A stretch of DNA of 39,744 nt from Dehalococcoidia bacterium. GTDB taxonomy: Bacteria; Chloroflexota; Dehalococcoidia; Dehalococcoidales; BS750m-G39. The notes under the pieces were generated by a model. It was not told the origin of the DNA and did not search any database. It saw nothing but the letters and a program-made list of their open reading frames with translations. The stretch spans positions 1 through 39,744 of the forward strand of contig DAOWJM010000080.1 in NCBI GenBank assembly GCA_030640325.1. Direction: 5' to 3'. The translations under genes and the position numbers were made by a program. Shown here one piece after another: positions 3,112 through 39,744 of this stretch. Position 1 is the stretch's first letter; each line of letters starts with the position of its first letter.

Positions 3112-4761
3112 ATGACTACAGAAGCTGAATTACTCGTCCAAGGTAAAAATGAAGAACTATGGCAAAGGTGTTGTGGCTTTATTGACCTGAGCTTAGAGGA
3201 TTGCATGAGCATTCAGCGGCGGCTACTAATGGAGCAGCTGGAGCTACTTAAAAGGTGTAAGCTGGGTAAGAGTATCATGCGTGGGGCTGAGCCCAGAACC
3301 GTGGAGGAATTCCGGAGGCAAGTGCCATTAACCACCTATGCTGATTATGAACCATTCCTCTTAACCAAAAATGAGCGTGCCCTACCACAGAAACCGATGC
3401 TTTGGCAACACACCTCAGGCAGGTCTGGTGAGTATCCTTTCAAGTGGGTCCCGGTCACTGCCAGGCAGTTTAAAGAATTACAAGCACTACTGTTTGCCTG
3501 TTTAGCCTTCTCCTGCTGCCAACAAAAGGGCGAAATTGCATACAAGAGAAAGGACAAATTCCTTTATGCTCTAGCCCCTCCACCCTACACTACAGGCTCG
3601 CTAATCCACGCTGCCCCTCATGAATTGTTTGACTTTCTGCCGCCAGTAAAGGCAGCAGAAGGTATGTCTTTTGAGGACAGAGTGCAGCTCGGTTTCAAAC
3701 TGGCTCTATCTGAGGGACTGGACTTATTTTTCGCCTTGTCCAGTGTACTGGTAGCTATTGGTGAACGCTTCAGCCAAAGAAACAGGAGAATCGATATTAA
3801 ACCTCTACTGGGTAATCCTAAGGCTCTATCTCGACTACTAAAAGGATTAATGAAAAGCAAACTAGCTCGCCGTCCAATACTACCCAAGGATATCTGGAGG
3901 CTTAAGGGACTAGTCTCAACCGGCTCAGATGGCTCAGTATTCAGGGAAAAGGTCAAGGAGATGTGGGGGAGGTATCCCCTGGATGTCTATGGTGGCACCG
4001 AGGGCATAATTATGGCTACACAAACATGGGATTATCAGGGTATGACTTTCATACCTCACCTCAACTTCCTAGAGTTTATTCCTCAGGAAGAAAGCCTAAA
4101 ATCCAGAGCTGACCCCTTTTACCAACCAAGCACACTACTTCTAGACGAGGTTAAGCCGGGAGAAAGGTACGAACTCGTAATTACCAACTTTCTCGGTGGA
4201 CCGCTTATTAGGTATAAGCTCGGCGATATGATTAAGATAACATCACTGCGCAATGAACAGCTCAACATAGACATCCCTCAGATGGTATTTCACTCTCGGG
4301 TGGATGATATGATTGACATCGCTGGTTTCACTCGGTTAACAGAAAGGGTCATCTGGCAGGCTATAGAGAACTCAGGGGTAGCCTACAAAGAGTGGACAGT
4401 GCGCAAGGAGGTCAGGGAGAAACCAATACTACACCTATACCTTGAGCTCAGGGAAAACGGGTATGTTACTGAGGAGCAAGTAGCTGAATCGGTACATCAC
4501 GAACTCAAAAGGTTGGATGCTCCCTATGCTGACTTGGAAGTATTTCTAGGTTTAAGACCATTAGAGGTTACTCTACTTCCCGAAAATGCCTTTCAGGGCT
4601 ATATGTCAAGACAGCAAGCAGCTGGTGCTGACCTGGCTCACCTGAAGCCGCCACATATCAACCCGTCTGATAGCATAATAGATTGCCTAGTCAATGGCAC
4701 AGGCAAGATACCAGTAACTAGCAAGCAAAAGCGCCAGCCAGAAACCATTCATAGTAAATAA
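3112..4761 (+). CDS. GH3-family (auxin-responsive-promoter-like) acyl-adenylate-forming enzyme
   Basis: SD AAGGAGG upstream. N-terminal RRQVPLTTYADYEPFL and a WQHTSGRSGE..FKWVP adenylation-type motif. The 549-aa length is typical of bacterial GH3 proteins. Confidence 0.7.
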   Translation: MTTEAELLVQGKNEELWQRCCGFIDLSLEDCMSIQRRLLMEQLELLKRCKLGKSIMRGAEPRTVEEFRRQVPLTTYADYEPFLLTKNERALPQKPMLWQHTSGRSGEYPFKWVPVTARQFKELQALLFACLAFSCCQQKGEIAYKRKDKFLYALAPPPYTTGSLIHAAPHELFDFLPPVKAAEGMSFEDRVQLGFKLALSEGLDLFFALSSVLVAIGERFSQRNRRIDIKPLLGNPKALSRLLKGLMKSKLARRPILPKDIWRLKGLVSTGSDGSVFREKVKEMWGRYPLDVYGGTEGIIMATQTWDYQGMTFIPHLNFLEFIPQEESLKSRADPFYQPSTLLLDEVKPGERYELVITNFLGGPLIRYKLGDMIKITSLRNEQLNIDIPQMVFHSRVDDMIDIAGFTRLTERVIWQAIENSGVAYKEWTVRKEVREKPILHLYLELRENGYVTEEQVAESVHHELKRLDAPYADLEVFLGLRPLEVTLLPENAFQGYMSRQQAAGADLAHLKPPHINPSDSIIDCLVNGTGKIPVTSKQKRQPETIHSK

Positions 4762-6036
4762 ATGATGATAGCAGATATAAATCACAATGGCAGGCGAGCA
4801 GTCGTTACCGGTATAGGGGTTATTAGCCCTATTGGGCTCACAGTTTCCAGTATGTGGGAAGCTCTTGTTTCCGGGAAATCGGGAATTGATTATATTGCTA
4901 GCTTTGACCCTGCGCCCCTTGAGACTAAATTTGCCGCTGAAGCCAACGGGTTTGACCCAAGGGTGTATGTCAACCGAAAAGAAGCGCACCGGATGGATAG
5001 GTTCACCCAGTTTGCTGTAGCTGCCAGTCTCCAGGCAGTGGAATCAGCAGGTTTGAGGATAAACAATGGTAATGCTGAGGAGATCGGCGTTATCATTGGG
5101 AGCAGCGTCGGTGGACTGCTTTCAATTTCTGAACAACTTAAGGTGTTAAGCGAGGCCGGCCCAAGACGGATAAGCCCTATTCTGGCACCGACTATGACCG
5201 GCGATGCTGCCTCGGTACAGGTTTCCTTAATATTGGGTGCCAAGGGACTGAGCTACTCCCCATCTTCAGCCTGCTCCAGCGGCAGTGATGCTATTGGGCA
5301 AGCATATCAGGCGATTAGAGCAGGCGATGCCAAGGTGATGGTAGCTGGCGGCACTGAAGCCCCCGTCGTCCCTCTCATCCTTGCCGCCTTTAACGCTATC
5401 CGTGCCTTATCAACAAGCAATAACGGAGTGCAAGCGGCATGCCGACCGTTTGATGCCGAGCGTGATGGCTTCGTCTTGGGCGAAGGTGCTGCCGTTATGG
5501 TCATTGAAGATGCCAGCCACGCCGCTGAGCGTGGAGCTCCTATCCTGGCTGAAATCGTGGGCTATAGCGCCACTAGCGACGCTTTTCACCTCACTCAGCC
5601 TTCGCCTGATGGTGAGGGTGCCGCCAGAGCATTAAGGTTAGCCCTGAAGAGGGCTAACCTCAGTCCCAGCGATATTGACTATATCAACGCCCATGGCACA
5701 GCTACATTGCTTAATGACCGAACTGAAACCCAGGCTATTAAAAGCGTATTTAACGGAAACGGACATGATGCCTACCGTATTCCCATCTCAGGCACCAAAT
5801 CTATGATAGGGCACCTTATAGGGGCAGCAGGTAGTATTGAGGCTGTGATATGCATCCTGGCCATAAATCATGGCATCGTGCCACCAACTATAAACCTCAC
5901 CCACCCCGACCCCGAGTGTGACCTGGATTATGTGCCTAATAAGGCACGTCCGGTCAAGGTAAAGACCGCCATGTCAAATTCTTTCGGCTTCGGCGGACAT
6001 AACTCTGTGCTCATCTTTCGCCACTACTCGGAATAA
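4762..6036 (+). CDS. fabF: beta-ketoacyl-ACP synthase II
   Basis: RRAVVTGIGVISPIG. Active-site Cys context SSACSSGSDAIGQA. HGTATLLND and GHLIGAAG His motifs. FGFGGHNSVLIF C-terminus. The ATG abuts the GH3 stop (TAAATG). Confidence 0.93.
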   Translation: MMIADINHNGRRAVVTGIGVISPIGLTVSSMWEALVSGKSGIDYIASFDPAPLETKFAAEANGFDPRVYVNRKEAHRMDRFTQFAVAASLQAVESAGLRINNGNAEEIGVIIGSSVGGLLSISEQLKVLSEAGPRRISPILAPTMTGDAASVQVSLILGAKGLSYSPSSACSSGSDAIGQAYQAIRAGDAKVMVAGGTEAPVVPLILAAFNAIRALSTSNNGVQAACRPFDAERDGFVLGEGAAVMVIEDASHAAERGAPILAEIVGYSATSDAFHLTQPSPDGEGAARALRLALKRANLSPSDIDYINAHGTATLLNDRTETQAIKSVFNGNGHDAYRIPISGTKSMIGHLIGAAGSIEAVICILAINHGIVPPTINLTHPDPECDLDYVPNKARPVKVKTAMSNSFGFGGHNSVLIFRHYSE

Positions 6037-16418: not shown

Positions 16419-16535
16419 ATAATAGTTATTAGCTATCGACCCATAGGGCGGTAAGCTTTTTAAGAAGTTTTTTAATAACCCGGGTCGCTTGGATCGGATA
16501 CGACCGAGACGGCAAAAATAGAGTTTGTATTTGGG
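16419..16535 (+). ncRNA. structured 5' leader of the pan operon with two look-alike bulged-A hairpins (candidate pan-motif-like cis-regulator)
   Basis: Hairpin 16434-16453 and hairpin 16488-16508 share one architecture: 5 bp (third pair T/G), a bulged A, 3 bp, then a 3-4 nt loop. See findings. Confidence 0.45.
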
Positions 16536-22268: not shown

Positions 22269-22344
<76 letters not shown>

Positions 22345-22352
22345 AAATAAAA

Positions 22353-22427
22353 GCGGAAGTGGCTCAGCGGTAGAGCATCTCCTTGCCAAGGAGAGGGTCA
22401 CGAGTTCGAATCTCGTCTTCCGCTCCA
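22353..22427 (+). tRNA. tRNA-Gly (GCC)
   Basis: GCGGAAG..TCTCC TTGCCAA GGAGA..ACGAG TTCGAAT CTCGT CTTCCGC T CCA. Confidence 0.95.
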
Positions 22428-22439
22428 TTTGGGTTATGA

Positions 22440-22525
22440 GCCGAAGTGGCGGAATAGGCAGACGCGGCAGTCTCAAAAACTGTTGGAGGGCGACCTCCAT
22501 GTCGGTTCGAGCCCGACCTTCGGCA
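22440..22525 (+). tRNA. tRNA-Leu (CAA), type II, no encoded CCA
   Basis: GCCGAAG..GCAGT CTCAAAA ACTGT, variable arm GGAGG GCGA CCTCC, GTCGG TTCGAGC CCGAC CTTCGGC A. Confidence 0.93.
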
Positions 22526-22535
22526 CTATATAGAA

Positions 22536-22609
22536 TGCCGAGTTGTGTAGTGGTAGCACGGGGGACTTTGGATCCCTTAGCCCTGGTTCGAATCCAGGCT
22601 CGGCAGCCA
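22536..22609 (+). tRNA. tRNA-Gln (UUG)
   Basis: TGCCGAG..GGGGA CTTTGGA TCCCT..CCTGG TTCGAAT CCAGG CTCGGCA G CCA. The U1:A72 pair is typical of bacterial tRNA-Gln. Confidence 0.93.
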
Positions 22610-35821: not shown

Positions 35822-36820
35822 ATGGCTGAATATAAAGGTGTAATGGTTTTTTGCGAGGCTACGGAAGGAAAACTGGCGGCAATCGCCACCGAGCTATTGG
35901 GCTGCGGTAGAAAGCTGGCTGATGACCTGGGGCAGGAATTATCGGCTGTGTTAGTAGGCAGTGGCATAAGCGGTTTGGCTCAGGAAGCTATTGCCTTTGG
36001 CGCTGATAAAGCCTATGTAGTTGATGACACACTGCTCCAAGATTATCAAACAGATTCCTACGTATCAGTTATGGAAAAGGTAGTCAAGCAGGTGATACCC
36101 CAGATTCTCCTTCTGGGGCAGACCTCTATCGGTCGTGACCTGGCACCCAGGCTAGCTTTCAGGCTGAACACGGCTGCCTCTATGGGCTGCCTGGAGCTGG
36201 CTATCGACCCTGAGTCAAAGCTACTGCTGCAGACCAAGCCTGTCTACGGAGGGAACGCTCAAGCTGTCTTCATCTGTGAGTCCTACCCACAGATAGCTAC
36301 CGTTAGAGCCAAGGCAATGGCGCCTCTGGAGCGAGACGAATCAAGGCAGGGCGAAGTAATCACTGTTGACGCTGGTCTAGACCCCTCGGCAATAAGGACC
36401 AAAGTGCTGGAAAAGGTGCCAGAGGAAGTGGCGGGGATAAGGCTTGAGGATGCTGAGGTGGTAGTAAGCGGAGGTAGAGGCATCGGCAGTGCTGAAGGTT
36501 TTGAGCAGTTAGAGGAACTGGCCAGGATGCTGAAGGGGGCAGTAGGAGCTACCAGACCTCCCTGTGATAATGACTGGGTGCCAGCTGGGGCACAAGTAGG
36601 GCTTACTGGTAAGATTATCGCCCCTGAGCTCTACATTGCTGTAGCTCTGTCTGGTTCCAGCCAACATATGTCCGGTTGCTCTGGCTCCAAGACCATAGTA
36701 GCTATAAATAAAGACCCGGAGGCAAATATCTTCAGGGAAGCCCGCTTCGGCGTAGTGGGCGACTGGAAAAAGGCGCTACCCGCCTTCGCCGAGAAGGTTA
36801 AGGAGCTTCTGGCTGGATAG
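35822..36820 (+). CDS. etfA: electron transfer flavoprotein alpha subunit
   Basis: C-terminal FAD motif PELYIAVALSGSSQHMSG..IVAINKDPEANIF. Confidence 0.92.
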   Translation: MAEYKGVMVFCEATEGKLAAIATELLGCGRKLADDLGQELSAVLVGSGISGLAQEAIAFGADKAYVVDDTLLQDYQTDSYVSVMEKVVKQVIPQILLLGQTSIGRDLAPRLAFRLNTAASMGCLELAIDPESKLLLQTKPVYGGNAQAVFICESYPQIATVRAKAMAPLERDESRQGEVITVDAGLDPSAIRTKVLEKVPEEVAGIRLEDAEVVVSGGRGIGSAEGFEQLEELARMLKGAVGATRPPCDNDWVPAGAQVGLTGKIIAPELYIAVALSGSSQHMSGCSGSKTIVAINKDPEANIFREARFGVVGDWKKALPAFAEKVKELLAG

Positions 36821-36970
36821 GATTAAGCCTTCTCGGCTTGTTCCCTCTTTAAGGGCTTAGTAGCAGCTTTGAGAACTGCCTCCAAGTCGCTCTTGGCAAA
36901 GGGGCGCTTAGGCTGCCTTTTCTCATGTTTTGTAGCTTGCTTATTCTTGCTCTTATCCATGACATAAAAC

Positions 36971-37000
36971 TTGACAAAAAACCAACTTTTGTGATAGGAT
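36971..37000 (+). promoter_or_regulatory. putative promoter (TTGACA-18-TGaTAGGAT) upstream of the tRNA-like gene
   Basis: TTGACA at 36971-36976, TG at 36992-36993 and TAGGAT at 36995-37000. Confidence 0.4.
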
Positions 37001-37055
37001 AATAGCCAGATAGTGATTATGGTCGGACAACCTTTCACCATCTGGCTATTATTTT
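37001..37055 (+). terminator. long hairpin plus ATTTT (probable etfBA terminator)
   Basis: 16-bp stem 37001-37016 / 37035-37050 with one A/C mismatch, an 18-nt loop, then ATTTT. Confidence 0.45.
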
Positions 37056-37059
37056 GCTT

Positions 37060-37150
37060 GGAGAGCGTGGTCTCATGGCTGAGAACCCTCTCTTAAAAAG
37101 AGCGGACACGTGCTCATACCACGTGTGGGGTTCAATTCCCCCACTCTCCT
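37060..37150 (+). tRNA. non-canonical tRNA-like gene: 8-bp acceptor / 4-bp T stem, 7-bp variable arm, anticodon UAA, U73, no CCA
   Basis: Hand fold, with full pairings given in the findings. It has a canonical T loop (TTCAATT), GG in the D loop and U33. The 7/5 alternative needs two mismatches. Confidence 0.5.
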
Positions 37151-37245
37151 TCGCAATATAATCGTATAATATGATGATGTTGTTTGTAAATTAGTCAATT
37201 TGTCTTACATATATATGCTTGTTACACCAAGCAGGAGGATAAACA

Positions 37246-37887
37246 ATGAATACCATAAGTTCATGGGAAGCTCAGACAAGAGAGCTGCTTAGTCGGATTG
37301 AGCGTGAGATGCAGGAAATACAAGTTGACAGTGAGAGGCGCCTAGCAATCTTGCAAGAAAAGCAATGGGGAATTCTGCAAGCGCTAGAGGCATATGCAGA
37401 ATTCATCGGCTCCGGCCAAAGTGAGCCGCCTCAATTACTGAGCCCAACTGATATAAAGGGGAAAAGCCACAGAGAGATACTGCACCTTATCGCAGAGCGG
37501 AATGATGGGCGTCTTATTGCCAGAAATGCTATTAAGCTTATGAAAGAAAGTAATATTTTCGGAGATTCGCCTAATGCTGATTCGATAGTTTATGCTGTCC
37601 TGAATAGGAGCCCAGAGTTTGTCAAACTAGGTAGCGGGGTGTATAGATTAAACGGCACCCAAGTAAAGAGCCAAGCTAAAACAAAGAGGCACAAACGAAG
37701 AGGACTAAAGCAGGCTGTCAAAGAACTGAAGAAAAAGAACCCACAAATGACTAAGAAACAAGCTAAGAATACCTTGATTCGGCAAGGTTTTGACTTTCAG
37801 GGTAAAAACCCTGGTCAGGCAGTCCATATGGCTTGGGTTAATTTGGGTTCTACTAAGAAAGAGGGACAGCAGAGTTTGCTTAGGTAG
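37246..37887 (+). CDS. hypothetical protein: N-terminal coiled coil, central winged-helix (HARE-HTH-like, tentative), basic C-terminal region
   Basis: SD AGGAGG upstream. SHREILHLIAERNDGRLIARNAIKLMKES..DSIVYAVLNRSPEFVKLGSGVYRL resembles the HARE-HTH ending F.r.g.G.y.L. Confidence 0.5.
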   Translation: MNTISSWEAQTRELLSRIEREMQEIQVDSERRLAILQEKQWGILQALEAYAEFIGSGQSEPPQLLSPTDIKGKSHREILHLIAERNDGRLIARNAIKLMKESNIFGDSPNADSIVYAVLNRSPEFVKLGSGVYRLNGTQVKSQAKTKRHKRRGLKQAVKELKKKNPQMTKKQAKNTLIRQGFDFQGKNPGQAVHMAWVNLGSTKKEGQQSLLR

Positions 37888-37912
37888 CCGAATTTAGGCA
37901 TGGAATGACCAT

Positions 37913-38167
37913 ATGAAATTTCCCAAGAATGTCTGGGACCAACTCAAGAATAAATCTCCGAGAGATTTAATGTCCGCTTTGGAGAAAGATGGTGCAATAC
38001 CTGAAGGGTCGAGGCAAGCAGTCATAGGATTTCGGTATCCTGATGGTAGGCGGGTGGTTATTCACTACCATCCCAACAAAATTTACGGACCTAGACAAAT
38101 AAAAGCTCTAATTGAAGAAATAAACTGGACAATAGATGACCTTCAGCGATTGAAGCTCATCAAATAG
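37913..38167 (+). CDS. HicA-family (YcfA-like) toxin homologue with Arg at the usual catalytic His position
   Basis: SPRDLMSALEKDGAIPEGSRQAVIGFRYPDGRRVVIHYHPNKIYGPRQIKALIEEINWTIDDL aligns by eye to the HicA pattern (..LekdGw....GSH......dGr...vp.Hp.k.l....l..Il...gl...ef). Confidence 0.65.
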   Translation: MKFPKNVWDQLKNKSPRDLMSALEKDGAIPEGSRQAVIGFRYPDGRRVVIHYHPNKIYGPRQIKALIEEINWTIDDLQRLKLIK

Positions 38168-38450
38168 CACATGCCACTTTTACTTCTTGGGTATGACGGT
38201 TAGCACGGCTCCTAGTAATTTGGGGTATATCCTTGAAAGTCTGCATGGAAACACCTAATGGAATTGGGTCGCCATGCTTAATCAAAGATTGTATATAAAC
38301 AATAGTCGCATCTGCCGCATTTTGTAGAGCTACTTCCTTTGTATCCCCACCAACATGTAAACCTTTGAGAGCAGGACAGTAAGCGTGAAAGCCATCATCA
38401 TCGGGTTCCACAACCACTTCAATTGTGAACTCAATGACCAGCTTTGTCAT
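38160..38450 (-). CDS. HicB-family (UPF0150) antitoxin-like protein
   Basis: VEPDDDGFHAYCPALKGLHVGGDTKEVALQNAADATIVYIQSLIKHGDPIP is the HicB N-domain pattern. Strong SD AAAGGAGGA. The 3' end overlaps the hicA-like 3' end by 8 nt. Confidence 0.7.
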   Translation of the reverse strand: MTKLVIEFTIEVVVEPDDDGFHAYCPALKGLHVGGDTKEVALQNAADATIVYIQSLIKHGDPIPLGVSMQTFKDIPQITRSRANRHTQEVKVACAI

Positions 38451-38486
38451 ACATATCCTCCTTTCTTGTTTTCCGTGTTCCCACAG

Positions 38487-38548
38487 CTATAGTGACTATA
38501 GTCACTATAGCAATTGTAACATATACCATAGTAAACTGCCACTGTCAA
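38487..38548 (-). promoter_or_regulatory. putative hicB-like promoter (TTGACA-17-TATATG) followed by a perfect 24-nt palindrome (operator candidate)
   Basis: On the minus strand: TTGACA 38548-38543 and TATATG 38525-38520. Palindrome CTATAGTGACTATAGTCACTATAG at 38487-38510 lies between the -10 and the SD. Confidence 0.5.
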
Positions 38549-38699
38549 TACTTGATAGCTATATAAAATAATAAATAATGTAATGTTATAATTATATTTA
38601 TTATATTACCTGTCTAAATGGGATAGTTGCCTTATTTATTAAAGGTAACCGCCTTCTTGCTTGAAGATGCGATATTGACTTTATGGACGGGCGGCGAGG

Positions 38700-39744
38700 T
38701 CAGCCCTTCTCGGCTTGTCGTGCGGCAATAATCTTCTGGGCAATATGAGCAGGCACTTCCTCATAGTGGCTAAACTCTGCCTTATAGCTGCCTCTACCCT
38801 GGGTTATTGATTTCAGGTCTATGGCATAGCGTAAAATCTCAGCCAGTGGCACCTGAGCCTCAATAATATTGACTCCACCCCCGGGGTTCATCCCCTGCAC
38901 TCGCGCCCGCTTGGTATTAAGGTCGCCAATAATATCACCGGTGAAGCCCTCAGGGATGGTAACCTCGATATTCATTATCGGCTCAAGCAGGATAGGTTGC
39001 CCCTGTGATAATCCCTTCTTCAGCGCCCCCGCCCCGGCAATCTTGAAGCATATATCTGAGGAATCAACCGGGTGAAAGCTGCCATCATAGACTCTTGTCT
39101 TTATGTCAATAACTGGGTAGCGAGCTAAAACCCCTTCCTGAATGGCTTCATTAACCCCCTTTTCCACCGATGGAATATAATTCTTTGGTATACGGCCACC
39201 TACTACCTTATCAACGAACTCACGACCACTGCCACGAGGTAAAGGCTCAAGTTCCAGAAAGACATGCCCATATTGACCATGCCCTCCCGTCTGCTTTTTA
39301 TGCTTATACTCAGCCTTGGCTGGCACAGTAATCGTCTCTTTATATGGAACCTTAGGCGTTTCCAGTCTCACCCCGACACCAAACTTACGCAGCATCTTCT
39401 CTGCTGCCACCGCAAGGTGGGACTCACCAATTCCTGATAGAATTGTCTCGTTGGTATCAGCTTCACGATGCACCGCAAGGGTGGGGTCTTCCTCAGACAA
39501 TCTGGATAGCGCCGCTCCCAGCTTATCCAGGTCAGCCTTGGTCTTGGGATGCACCGCCAGGCTAAACGCCGGCTCGGGGAATAGAACAGGGGCAATCTTC
39601 ATTGGTTGAGCCTGACTACATAATGTATCCCCGGTGCTGGTCAGACCTAATTTAGCTACCGCTCCCATATCTCCTGCTCTGAGCTGAGATACTGGCTCCT
39701 GGGTCTTGCCCCTCAGTATAAATAGCTGACCGATGCGCTCAGCG
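38700..39744 (-). CDS. fusA: elongation factor G family GTPase, C-terminal about 347 aa (N-terminus beyond right edge)
   Basis: Domains III-V: ..GESHLAVAAEKMLRKFGVGVRLETPKVPYKETI..GGHGQYGHV..PVDSS..ITQGRGSY. My reverse translation continues in frame to the window end (AERIGQLFILRGKTQEPVSQLRAGD-MGAV). It may be an EF-G paralogue. Confidence 0.93.
   Translation of the reverse strand, partial: AERIGQLFILRGKTQEPVSQLRAGDMGAVAKLGLTSTGDTLCSQAQPMKIAPVLFPEPAFSLAVHPKTKADLDKLGAALSRLSEEDPTLAVHREADTNETILSGIGESHLAVAAEKMLRKFGVGVRLETPKVPYKETITVPAKAEYKHKKQTGGHGQYGHVFLELEPLPRGSGREFVDKVVGGRIPKNYIPSVEKGVNEAIQEGVLARYPVIDIKTRVYDGSFHPVDSSDICFKIAGAGALKKGLSQGQPILLEPIMNIEVTIPEGFTGDIIGDLNTKRARVQGMNPGGGVNIIEAQVPLAEILRYAIDLKSITQGRGSYKAEFSHYEEVPAHIAQKIIAARQAEKG

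Follow-up and report, generated by a model that had tools for sequence, protein, structure and literature searches.

A mobile tRNA(UAA) gene of the 8/4 allo-tRNA class and its linked protein in a Dehalococcoidia-like genome

What is the role of a tRNA that carries a leucine anticodon on a body unlike that of a leucine tRNA? The question is raised by a 91-nt gene at positions 37060-37150 (+) of contig DAOWJM010000080.1 (assembly GCA_030640325.1, Dehalococcoidia bacterium), a stretch of 39,744 nt that was analysed whole and is called the window below. ARAGORN labels the gene tRNA-Leu(taa), in agreement with the coordinates and the UAA anticodon of an earlier annotation, hereafter the original prediction, in which the gene had been folded by hand with acceptor and T stems of 8 and 4 bp (8/4) instead of the standard 7/5 division. 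We find that it is a genuine tRNA gene of the 8/4 class of allo-tRNAs, borne on a recently mobile islet together with a promoter, an inverted repeat and the gene of a protein that we call X, to all of which it is linked. The best explanation, to which we give a probability of roughly 0.6, is a mobile cassette whose allo-tRNA would be charged with serine, act as a missense suppressor at UUA and UUG codons and be regulated by X.

The tRNA gene and its parts, the latter read from the sequence, are located as follows:
37060-37150 (+), 8/4 allo-type tRNA gene (ARAGORN; Rfam tRNA-Sec model, 44.3 bits; family model R1, 60.9 bits; pair counts)
37060-37067 / 37142-37149 (+), acceptor stem
37070-37085 (+), D arm, with its tetraloop at 37076-37079
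37086-37104 (+), anticodon arm, with the anticodon UAA at 37094-37096
37106-37126 (+), variable (V) arm
37127-37141 (+), T arm

The acceptor strands GGAGAGCG and CACUCUCC align over eight pairs, one of which, C7.A66, is mismatched, and a linker of 2 nt separates them from the D arm. The latter consists of five base pairs (UCUCA/UGAGA), a G.A apposition and the tetraloop UGGC, an arrangement that the model for selenocysteine tRNA (tRNA-Sec) aligns likewise; the D arm first drawn, of 4 bp with a 6-nt loop, is thus replaced by this Sec-like form, while its presence and its GG stand. The anticodon stem has six positions, namely four pairs, a C.C mismatch and a final pair, with the loop CUUAAAA. 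This agrees with the earlier drawing; the Rfam alignment displays the C.C position as a bulged C, and relatives likewise tend to be weak there. The V stem (ACACGUG/CACGUGU) is a perfect 7-bp helix with a 7-nt loop, preceded by a single spacer G on its 5' side and directly adjoining the T stem on its 3' side. The T stem is GGGG/CCCC (4 bp), with the loop UUCAAUU. The discriminator is U37150 (U73), followed by TCG, and no CCA is encoded, unlike in five of the six host tRNAs of the window. Reading the sequence therefore confirmed the V arm adjoining the T stem, U73 and the missing CCA as first described. Altogether 23 of 25 pairs are intact in the acceptor, T, V and D stems, the T and D loops are canonical, and the minimum free energy fold of 37060-37150 alone yields identical helices (z = -3.0 against shuffles).

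A conventional explanation would be an ordinary 7/5 tRNA-Leu(UAA) serving as the host's normal UUA decoder. It has in its favour the ARAGORN label and the lack of a second tRNA-Leu(UAA) in the 39.7-kb contig. At its curated Rfam threshold of 29 bits, the general tRNA model RF00005 detects the six other window tRNAs (Val, Phe, Gly, Leu-CAA, Gln and Asn), which had rightly been taken as ordinary; 37060-37150 falls below this cut-off, and forcing it into a 7/5 fold leaves 49:65 and 7:66 mismatched. When thresholds are relaxed, the highest-scoring Rfam model is the tRNA-Sec model RF01852 (44.3 bits, E = 1.2e-7, under the curated cut-off of 47 bits), which aligns the gene with a long acceptor and a 4-bp T stem. 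The outermost, ninth pair of that model is a U/U mismatch here, so that the 8/4 division remains. Five relatives score 46-58 bits with the same model.

This best match is also what speaks for a selenocysteine tRNA gene (selC) with a sense anticodon. The gene does share with tRNA-Sec and with selC* tRNA-Cys a long acceptor, a D stem of the 6-bp type with a tetraloop and a long V arm; moreover, four related loci (L168, L127, L138 and L144; our loci are numbered with the prefix L) have, where the 5' strand of the T stem ends on its outer side, one nucleotide too many or a mismatched one, recalling bulged 8/4 forms of selC* and minor tRNA-Sec. Those RNAs differ, however, in their anticodon, UCA or GCA, and in their selB or cysS context. 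Here the score stays under the cut-off, the branch has 12 bp (8/4) instead of the 13 bp (8/5) of bacterial tRNA-Sec, the anticodon is UAA, the gene lies on a strain-specific islet, and no selA, selB or selD was found among the open reading frames (ORFs) and called genes examined beside the cassettes. A selC gene is the least probable of all the explanations considered here.

Further evidence on the fold comes from homologues. A pattern fixing the Sec/allo register matched once in the window and not at all in 100 shuffles, so the gene is not a chance match, and retrieved 51 metagenome loci. A looser first scan of genome contigs returned mostly canonical tRNA-Leu(UAA) genes among the matches listed, and no close homologue among them. 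In the canonical tRNA-Leu(UAA) genes that these scans retrieved, the discriminator is A73, the D arm is ordinary and CCA is usually encoded, further features against an ordinary leucine tRNA at 37060-37150, where U73 replaces A73. The closest homologue, in L168, is about 90% identical across the RNA although both flanks are unalignable; compared with the window copy it shows a D-stem pair that has changed in a compensatory way from U:A to A:U, a paired C7:G66 and G73. In a larger group of homologues this layout is kept and the V arm is shorter; a 7-bp V stem marks the window tRNA and L168 as a subgroup relative to the published (8/4) allo-tRNAs. Searches of phage sequences produced nothing comparable: BLAST with the RNA against phage genomes found nothing, and pattern scans of viral contigs found Leu-like tRNAs with A73 only, none of the 8/4 type.

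We counted pairs in 14 unique 8/4-type sequences, using an ungapped, V-trimmed alignment of the fixed-length 5' and 3' parts. The 8/4 contact 8:65, between nucleotide 8 and the nucleotide preceding the 7-nt 3' acceptor strand, is paired in 14/14 sequences (GC 6, AU 4, UA 3, UG 1), whereas the alternative 7/5 contact 49:65, which joins the same 3' nucleotide to the one preceding the 4-bp T stem, is paired in 2/14. Covariation within the family extends to all five pairs of the D stem and to the outer pairs of the T stem; the anticodon-stem pairs 27:45 and 28:44 are mostly unpaired. Since the sequences had been ranked partly by the 8:65 contact, which introduces a circularity, the 44 unique pattern matches were split anew by D arm alone, with the following numbers paired at each contact:
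Sec-like D arm (n=16): only 8:65, 12; both, 2; only 49:65, 0; neither, 2 (9/3-like)
Ordinary D arm (n=28): only 8:65, 0; both, 11; only 49:65, 17; neither, 0

A family covariance model, R1, was then built from nine short-V members, excluding the window copy and L168. It recovers 37060-37150 end to end with 60.9 bits (E about 1e-12) and gives 54-79 bits to held-out 8/4 relatives; the best ordinary tRNA of the window reaches 31.1 bits, and tRNA-Leu(CAA) 15.6 bits. The 8/4 geometry, initially drawn by hand, is thereby supported by covariation among homologues and by two covariance models. The outcome that the original prediction had named as contrary to it, a confident 7/5 tRNA-Leu alignment with homologues conserving that fold, did not appear. 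The 8/4 family is under structural constraint, and the window gene is a genuine member of it.

How does this RNA compare with known allo-tRNAs? In the class as defined, the 12 bp of the acceptor branch are divided 8/4 or 9/3, the D arm is Sec-like and ends in a tetraloop, and the V arm is long; its members were found as false positives of a tRNA-Sec model and have anticodons for 35 distinct codons (Mukai et al. 2017, Nucleic Acids Res 45:2776, PMC5389517). Most carry G73 or U73, which the authors read as compatible with seryl-tRNA synthetase (SerRS), and they often occur near toxin-antitoxin systems and transposon-related genes, or in arrays of irregular tRNAs (PMC5389517). The window tRNA shares the 12-bp 8/4 branch, the Sec-like D arm, whose tetraloop has a pyrimidine in last place, the long V arm, a discriminator of the G73/U73 type and a non-serine anticodon; its locus shares the toxin-antitoxin genes, and related cassettes share transposases and short arrays of irregular tRNAs. 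Like allo-tRNAs, it scores as tRNA-Sec-like without being tRNA-Sec (RF01852 44.3 bits, RF00005 below 29 bits). The earlier suggestion of an allo-tRNA-like species with a leucine anticodon is supported by covariation, covariance models and class features. U73, then regarded as an oddity, is with G73 one of the two discriminators of most class members. It differs from known (8/4) allo-tRNAs in its host, which is Dehalococcoidia-like, the reported hosts being Clostridia, Proteobacteria and Acidobacteria (PMC5389517; 2020 review). In addition, the text of PMC5389517 assigns UUA/UUG anticodons to the 9/3 form, whereas here UAA sits on an 8/4 body. As U73, leucine anticodons and toxin-antitoxin neighbours are already published, the RNA alone leaves the picture of the class unchanged.

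A functional precedent is the (9/3) allo-tRNA(UAA) of Silvibacterium bohemicum, which inserted serine at UUA in E. coli and whose induction arrested growth and killed cells (PMC5389517). It has the same anticodon and the same predicted consequence as the window tRNA, and differs in its 9/3 geometry and acidobacterial origin. Our scans also contain 9/3-like allo-tRNAs with UAA in L160, L174 and L134, for instance GGGAGCAGA / UCUGCUCCC with a 3-bp GGG/CCC T stem, and these resemble the published 9/3 allo-tRNA(UAA).

Is the gene a resident of its genome? Its surroundings indicate otherwise:
36826-38631 (no strand assigned), strain-specific islet of 1,806 bp, 41.8% GC (homology breakpoints against seven syntenic loci; identity with L183)

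The islet, at 41.8% GC against 48.1% for the whole window, occupies a variable spot between the ETF-alpha gene and a convergent EF-G gene, and contains the tRNA, X, a HicA gene and a HicB-like ORF. An AT-rich islet with toxin-antitoxin-like genes had been predicted and is indeed present, with the tRNA gene placed inside it and not at its edge. The nearest named ETF-alpha relatives, 91% and 88% identical, come from Dehalococcoidales and Dehalococcoidia metagenome-assembled genomes (MAGs). Seven syntenic loci (L120-L126) were obtained via ETF-alpha orthologues with 91-98% protein identity. Nucleotide homology to them ends at about 36815-36825 (ETF-alpha end) and restarts at 38632-38705 (EF-G 3' end), and none of the seven has a tRNA downstream of ETF-alpha. 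The islet is also present on five contigs from a single metagenomic sample series: in L183 it is identical over 1806/1806 positions, against 96.1% identity in the adjoining EF-G segment, and of the 79 mismatches in the 3.9-kb alignment between the window and L183 none falls inside the islet. Full identity beside a diverged EF-G flank implies recent horizontal spread. The islet is recently mobile, and the tRNA is its cargo, not a housekeeping tRNA. The same comparison bears on the ordinary leucine tRNA, since a sole UUA decoder could not be dispensable and close relatives, whose flanking genes encode proteins 91-98% identical, lack the gene. Together with the family counts for 8/4 (14/14) over 7/5 (2/14), this contradicts that explanation and leaves it highly improbable.

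The gap between ETF-alpha and EF-G appears as an integration hotspot with different cargo in each relative (L120-L126): small ORFs, a methyltransferase-Mrr fusion with DUF3800, a 789-aa unknown protein, and an NPCBM-associated protein with an ABC transporter. An exact 14-nt direct repeat, CCTTCTCGGCTTGT, occurs at 36828-36841, just past the ETF-alpha stop, and at 38705-38718, in the coding 3' end of EF-G (rough chance estimate p ~0.007 in 1.9 kb), and may be a trace of islet insertion. A truncated EF-G pseudogene at the contig end was considered and discarded, the frame remaining open to the end of the contig.

Within the islet, the tRNA belongs to an ordered set of elements:
36971-37000 (+), sigma-70-like promoter: TTGACA, 18-nt spacer, TAGGAT, extended -10 TG (putative; consensus scan, 10/12)
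36999-37052 (+), leader inverted repeat, arms 36999-37016 / 37035-37052 (18 nt each, 94% complementary)
37246-37887 (+), protein X gene, 213 aa, same strand, downstream of the tRNA (homologues, AlphaFold2 model)

The order is a near-consensus promoter, the inverted repeat, the tRNA, about 95 nt, and gene X. X homologues lie directly downstream of an 8/4 tRNA(UAA), on the same strand, in L168 and in at least 10 other independent loci. In an unbiased test of this linkage that began from the protein X family, six loci besides the window's own were examined, and a tRNA was found 94-112 nt upstream of X in five of them (given below: X identity to the window, tRNA, distance, neighbours):
L188: X 83% identical; regular 7/5 type-II Ser-like tRNA, G73, UAA; 95 nt; phage-like (terminase)
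L192: X 46%; regular class-I tRNA with G3:U70 and A73 (alanine set), UAA; 96 nt; DEAD helicase and NYN/HEC-09
L193: X 51%; 8/4 tRNA, UAA; 112 nt; housekeeping genes
L194: X 56%; regular class-I tRNA, CUA (amber); 95 nt; NYN domain
L196: X 22%; class-I tRNA, UUA (ochre); 94 nt; SocA-Panacea, DDE transposase and ParB
L195: X 53%; no tRNA

Conversely, X is absent near 119 loci with canonical or Ser-like 7/5 tRNA(UAA) among the genome-scan matches listed, with one marginal match. The tRNA is in this way linked to X, with promoter and inverted repeat. Across cassettes the tRNA bodies are 8/4 Ser-like, 7/5 Ser-like, class-I with G3:U70, amber type or ochre type, and over these at least five unrelated bodies the anticodon is UAA or one of its one-step neighbours CUA and UUA. 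This retention of the anticodon over swapped bodies, whose identity marks change from Ser-type to the alanine G3:U70 mark, is our strongest argument that decoding matters, and suggests that selection acts on the mis-decoding of UUA, UAG and UAA.

The control region recurs as well. Near-consensus promoters were read at the equivalent place upstream in L129, L145, L151, L188, L192, L194 and L196. Stem finding in individual sequences detected the leader repeat in 12 of 14 related loci, as an uninterrupted helix of 11-17 bp. Conservation is seen in the outer arms, ATAATAGC / GCTATTAT, which overlap the -10 box; in the window the left arm begins inside this box, and a T-rich run follows the repeat. 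The inner arms vary by locus and yet stay complementary, and the loop has a recurring G-[CA]-R-A-A-C-C motif. RNAalifold returned no consensus for the leader hairpins, whose loop lengths differ. A consensus scan also placed a putative element upstream of the promoter:
36899-36921 (+), terminator-like hairpin and T run

Extra irregular tRNAs are present between the leader repeat and the UAA tRNA in L168 (65-136; class-I, loop CCUUAAA), in L131 (1850-1940) and, from a reading of its partial upstream sequence, in L127 (upstream of 3383), both of the latter being type-II tRNAs of 91-94 nt with anticodon UGG, and in L144 (983-1055; GCU). They resemble the irregular-tRNA polycistrons of Mukai et al. 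In L195, from a Chloroflexota MAG, positions 3650-4000 hold, ahead of X, a CGCGAAC motif and a site resembling a promoter, with a terminator-like hairpin in place of the tRNA.

What kind of protein is X? Pfam, PADLOC and NCBIfam contain nothing that matches it, and its one PHROGs match, to a head scaffolding protein (E = 1.5e-4, covering residues 144-191 of the window copy), is marginal; no known defence, phage or annotated family thus matches X convincingly. A sequence search of the PDB gave coiled-coil noise only, and scans of viral contigs for X found nothing. A word-indexed profile search found 47 relatives, and HMMER, run on 1.84 billion representatives, yielded 1,178 at E <= 1e-3, of which 433 reach E <= 1e-10, with a short form of about 145 aa and a long form of about 210-250 aa. 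The AlphaFold2 model (mean predicted local distance difference test score, pLDDT, 80) comprises a long N-terminal helix (6-54), a winged helix (75-135) and a C-terminal three-helix unit. The Foldseek matches, each of them weak, agree in being nucleic-acid binders with a winged helix: forkhead, the DNA-binding domain of Rok, the N-terminal domain of RNA-polymerase delta, the DpnI winged helix and SelB. X is a probable dimeric winged-helix protein. A conserved TTA "sensor" codon in X was also sought and rejected: TTA stands at the conserved leucine of the YRL motif in the window copy only, and half of the X genes have no TTA.

Which amino acid would the tRNA carry, and what would this mean for the host? 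Allo-tRNAs of the 8/4 type are expected to accept serine, or alanine, whatever their anticodon and to be used by the ribosome. Bacterial leucyl-tRNA synthetase relies on A73. The acceptor stem of the window tRNA is tRNA-Ser-like (G1:C72, G2:C71, A3:U70), and because this is combined with a long V arm and a non-A discriminator, SerRS is the likely charging enzyme; serine is, in turn, the amino acid most likely to be inserted at UUA and UUG. In the host, TTA accounts for 23 of the 162 leucine codons in five conserved genes (12 per 1000 codons), and the TTA codons of ETF-alpha fall at positions that are leucine in 117-118 of 118 orthologues. Recoding of UUA by the host is ruled out by this use of TTA at invariant leucine positions. 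UUA and UUG being ordinary leucine codons, a serine-charged tRNA would be a missense suppressor, mistranslating host proteins.

The function of the cassette is thus probably regulated mistranslation. In the corresponding scheme, the strong promoter would drive a potentially toxic, mis-decoding tRNA; SerRS would charge it, and serine would be inserted at UUA and UUG. X would dimerise via its long N-terminal helix and limit expression of the tRNA at the promoter and inverted repeat, or else control the RNA itself, so that mistranslation would be kept low or released conditionally.

Several observations weigh against this scheme. Six allo-tRNA(UAU) variants were inactive in translation (PMC5389517), so that membership of the class is no guarantee of activity. 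The window tRNA is alone among the 14 sequences in having 7:66 unpaired (C.A) and alone in having U73, the others having G and one of them C; with the C.C mismatch in the anticodon stem, these singularities could reflect reduced function or early decay. The Foldseek matches of X are individually weak (best E = 0.046), and its binding to the inverted repeat is a conjecture. The variable, complementary inner arms fit a hairpin (terminator, insulator or leader RNA) better than an operator. Lastly, L195 has X and no tRNA.

Some of these points lead to another explanation, a decaying pseudo-tRNA that would be the remnant of an active allo-tRNA, passively carried on the mobile islet. The two singular features and the C.C mismatch would fit, as would the absence of the gene from the seven syntenic loci and the degradation of related cassettes, where X is fragmentary (L141 and L145) or the tRNA missing (L195). 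A C.A apposition can nevertheless form a wobble-like pair and is a mild defect. Moreover, nearly all pairs and both canonical loops are preserved, the RNA has kept about 90% identity to L168 between unalignable flanks, with a compensatory change, and the promoter, the inverted repeat and the full-length X ORF are intact. We therefore regard decay as unlikely, though less so than a leucine or selenocysteine tRNA.

A possible but clearly less favoured alternative to regulated mistranslation is that the tRNA-shaped RNA would have a structural, non-translational task in the 5' part of the X transcript. It might mark the transcript for processing by RNase P/RNase Z, serve as a stabiliser, be bound by an anticodon-directed nuclease as its ligand or decoy, or be an RNA partner of X. 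The RNA does lie between the promoter and X, and a consensus scan found no terminator-like site between it and X. The weakness of the anticodon stem in many members, at 27:45 and 28:44, points the same way, as do the inactive allo-tRNA(UAU) variants, for which non-translational roles were suggested (PMC5389517). Winged-helix domains can bind RNA, SelB is among the fold matches of X, and RNases are frequent neighbours (HicA, the NYN/HEC-09 gene). This alternative has to account for UAA, CUA or UUA being kept over at least five unrelated architectures, most easily explained by decoding, and for an acceptor stem, T loop and D-loop GG retained as in working tRNAs.

The islet carries two further genes:
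37913-38167 (+), HicA-family toxin gene, 84 aa (Pfam PF07927, 29.4 bits, cut-off 27)
38160-38450 (-), HicB-like antitoxin ORF, 96 aa (Pfam PF15919, 25.4 bits, just under the cut-off of 27)

Near related cassettes are DDE transposases, the DDE transposase being the next gene in several short-V loci, a SocA-Panacea gene and an NYN/HEC-09 gene. The NYN gene of L192 (4748-5362), directly after X, is a full-length match to the PADLOC candidate defence gene HEC-09 (E = 9e-70). In L194, the gene at 4728-5339 has the same Pfam NYN domain, the PADLOC comparison covering the L192 gene alone. In the window, the HicA and HicB-like genes are convergent, their 3' ends overlapping by 8 nt, the usual HicAB arrangement being a co-directional operon.

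A tentative extension, about as probable as the non-translational element, is an addiction or abortive-infection module with the tRNA as its effector: the mis-decoding tRNA would be the toxin, repressed or sequestered by X. Depending on the cassette, it would insert serine or alanine at UUA/UUG, or read through amber or ochre codons. Loss of control, upon infection or loss of the element, would lead to proteome-wide mistranslation and cell arrest, and AT-rich invaders would be hit hardest because they use UUA and UAA most. We know of no description of a mis-decoding tRNA as the toxic component.

Two known systems offer partial parallels. The Streptomyces bldA gene encodes a canonical tRNA-Leu(UAA) in a high-GC genome where TTA is rare; the likeness lies in a dispensable UAA tRNA through the supply of which some of the genes could be controlled via their UUA codons. 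The difference is that TTA is common in the host genes here, the window tRNA does not resemble a leucine acceptor, and X has no conserved TTA. In CreTA, a CRISPR complex represses a toxin RNA that acts by sequestering a rare tRNA. RNA toxins of this type resemble the cassette as proposed in being small RNAs that interfere with translation, linked to a repressing component and located on mobile DNA.

Our scans also uncovered ordinary-looking 7/5 type-II tRNAs with Ser-like bodies and UAA, mostly with G73, in MAGs of several phyla among the matches listed, including Chloroflexota/Dehalococcoidia, Alpha- and Gammaproteobacteria, Paceibacterota and Binataceae. They occur in L033, L047, L053, L055, L056, L065, L074, L075, L078, L091, L107 and L113, and further with U73 in L004, L073 and L117 and with A73 in L026, L070, L072 and L095; the tRNAs of L070 and L113 are near-identical save for A73 and G73. 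Protein X is near none of these listed loci. They may be leucine-to-serine missense tRNAs of canonical shape. Elsewhere in the window, 22269-22609 (+) contains a tight cluster of canonical tRNAs (Phe-GAA, Gly-GCC, Leu-CAA and Gln-UUG), of which Leu-CAA is the sole host tRNA of the window without an encoded CCA, and the Rfam "pan motif" RF01749 is found at 16431-16516 (+), with 43.5 bits against a gathering score of 36.2.

Allo-tRNAs have been known since 2017 and serve as a chassis for genetic-code engineering. Their natural role is speculative according to the 2020 review. The present locus extends the class to a Dehalococcoidia-like host, in a Chloroflexota lineage, with an 8/4 fold that rests on natural covariation rather than on hand-folding. 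Its conserved promoter, inverted repeat and protein X are absent from the main text of PMC5389517. A fixed cassette with a partner protein is described neither there, nor in the 2020 review, nor in the results of targeted full-text literature searches and of a survey of HicA contexts, and the same literature contains no prior description of anticodon conservation across swapped tRNA bodies; the novelty appears to lie in these two features. The cassette is small, was transferred recently, and combines a fixed architecture with a dedicated, uncharacterised partner protein; it forms a compact testable unit, with which the natural role of allo-tRNAs becomes a directly testable question. If true, regulated mistranslation would represent a natural device of this kind on mobile DNA, relevant to tRNA biology, to toxin-antitoxin and defence research and to the biosafety of recoded organisms; and a module with the tRNA as effector would, if true, supply the missing natural function of allo-tRNAs.

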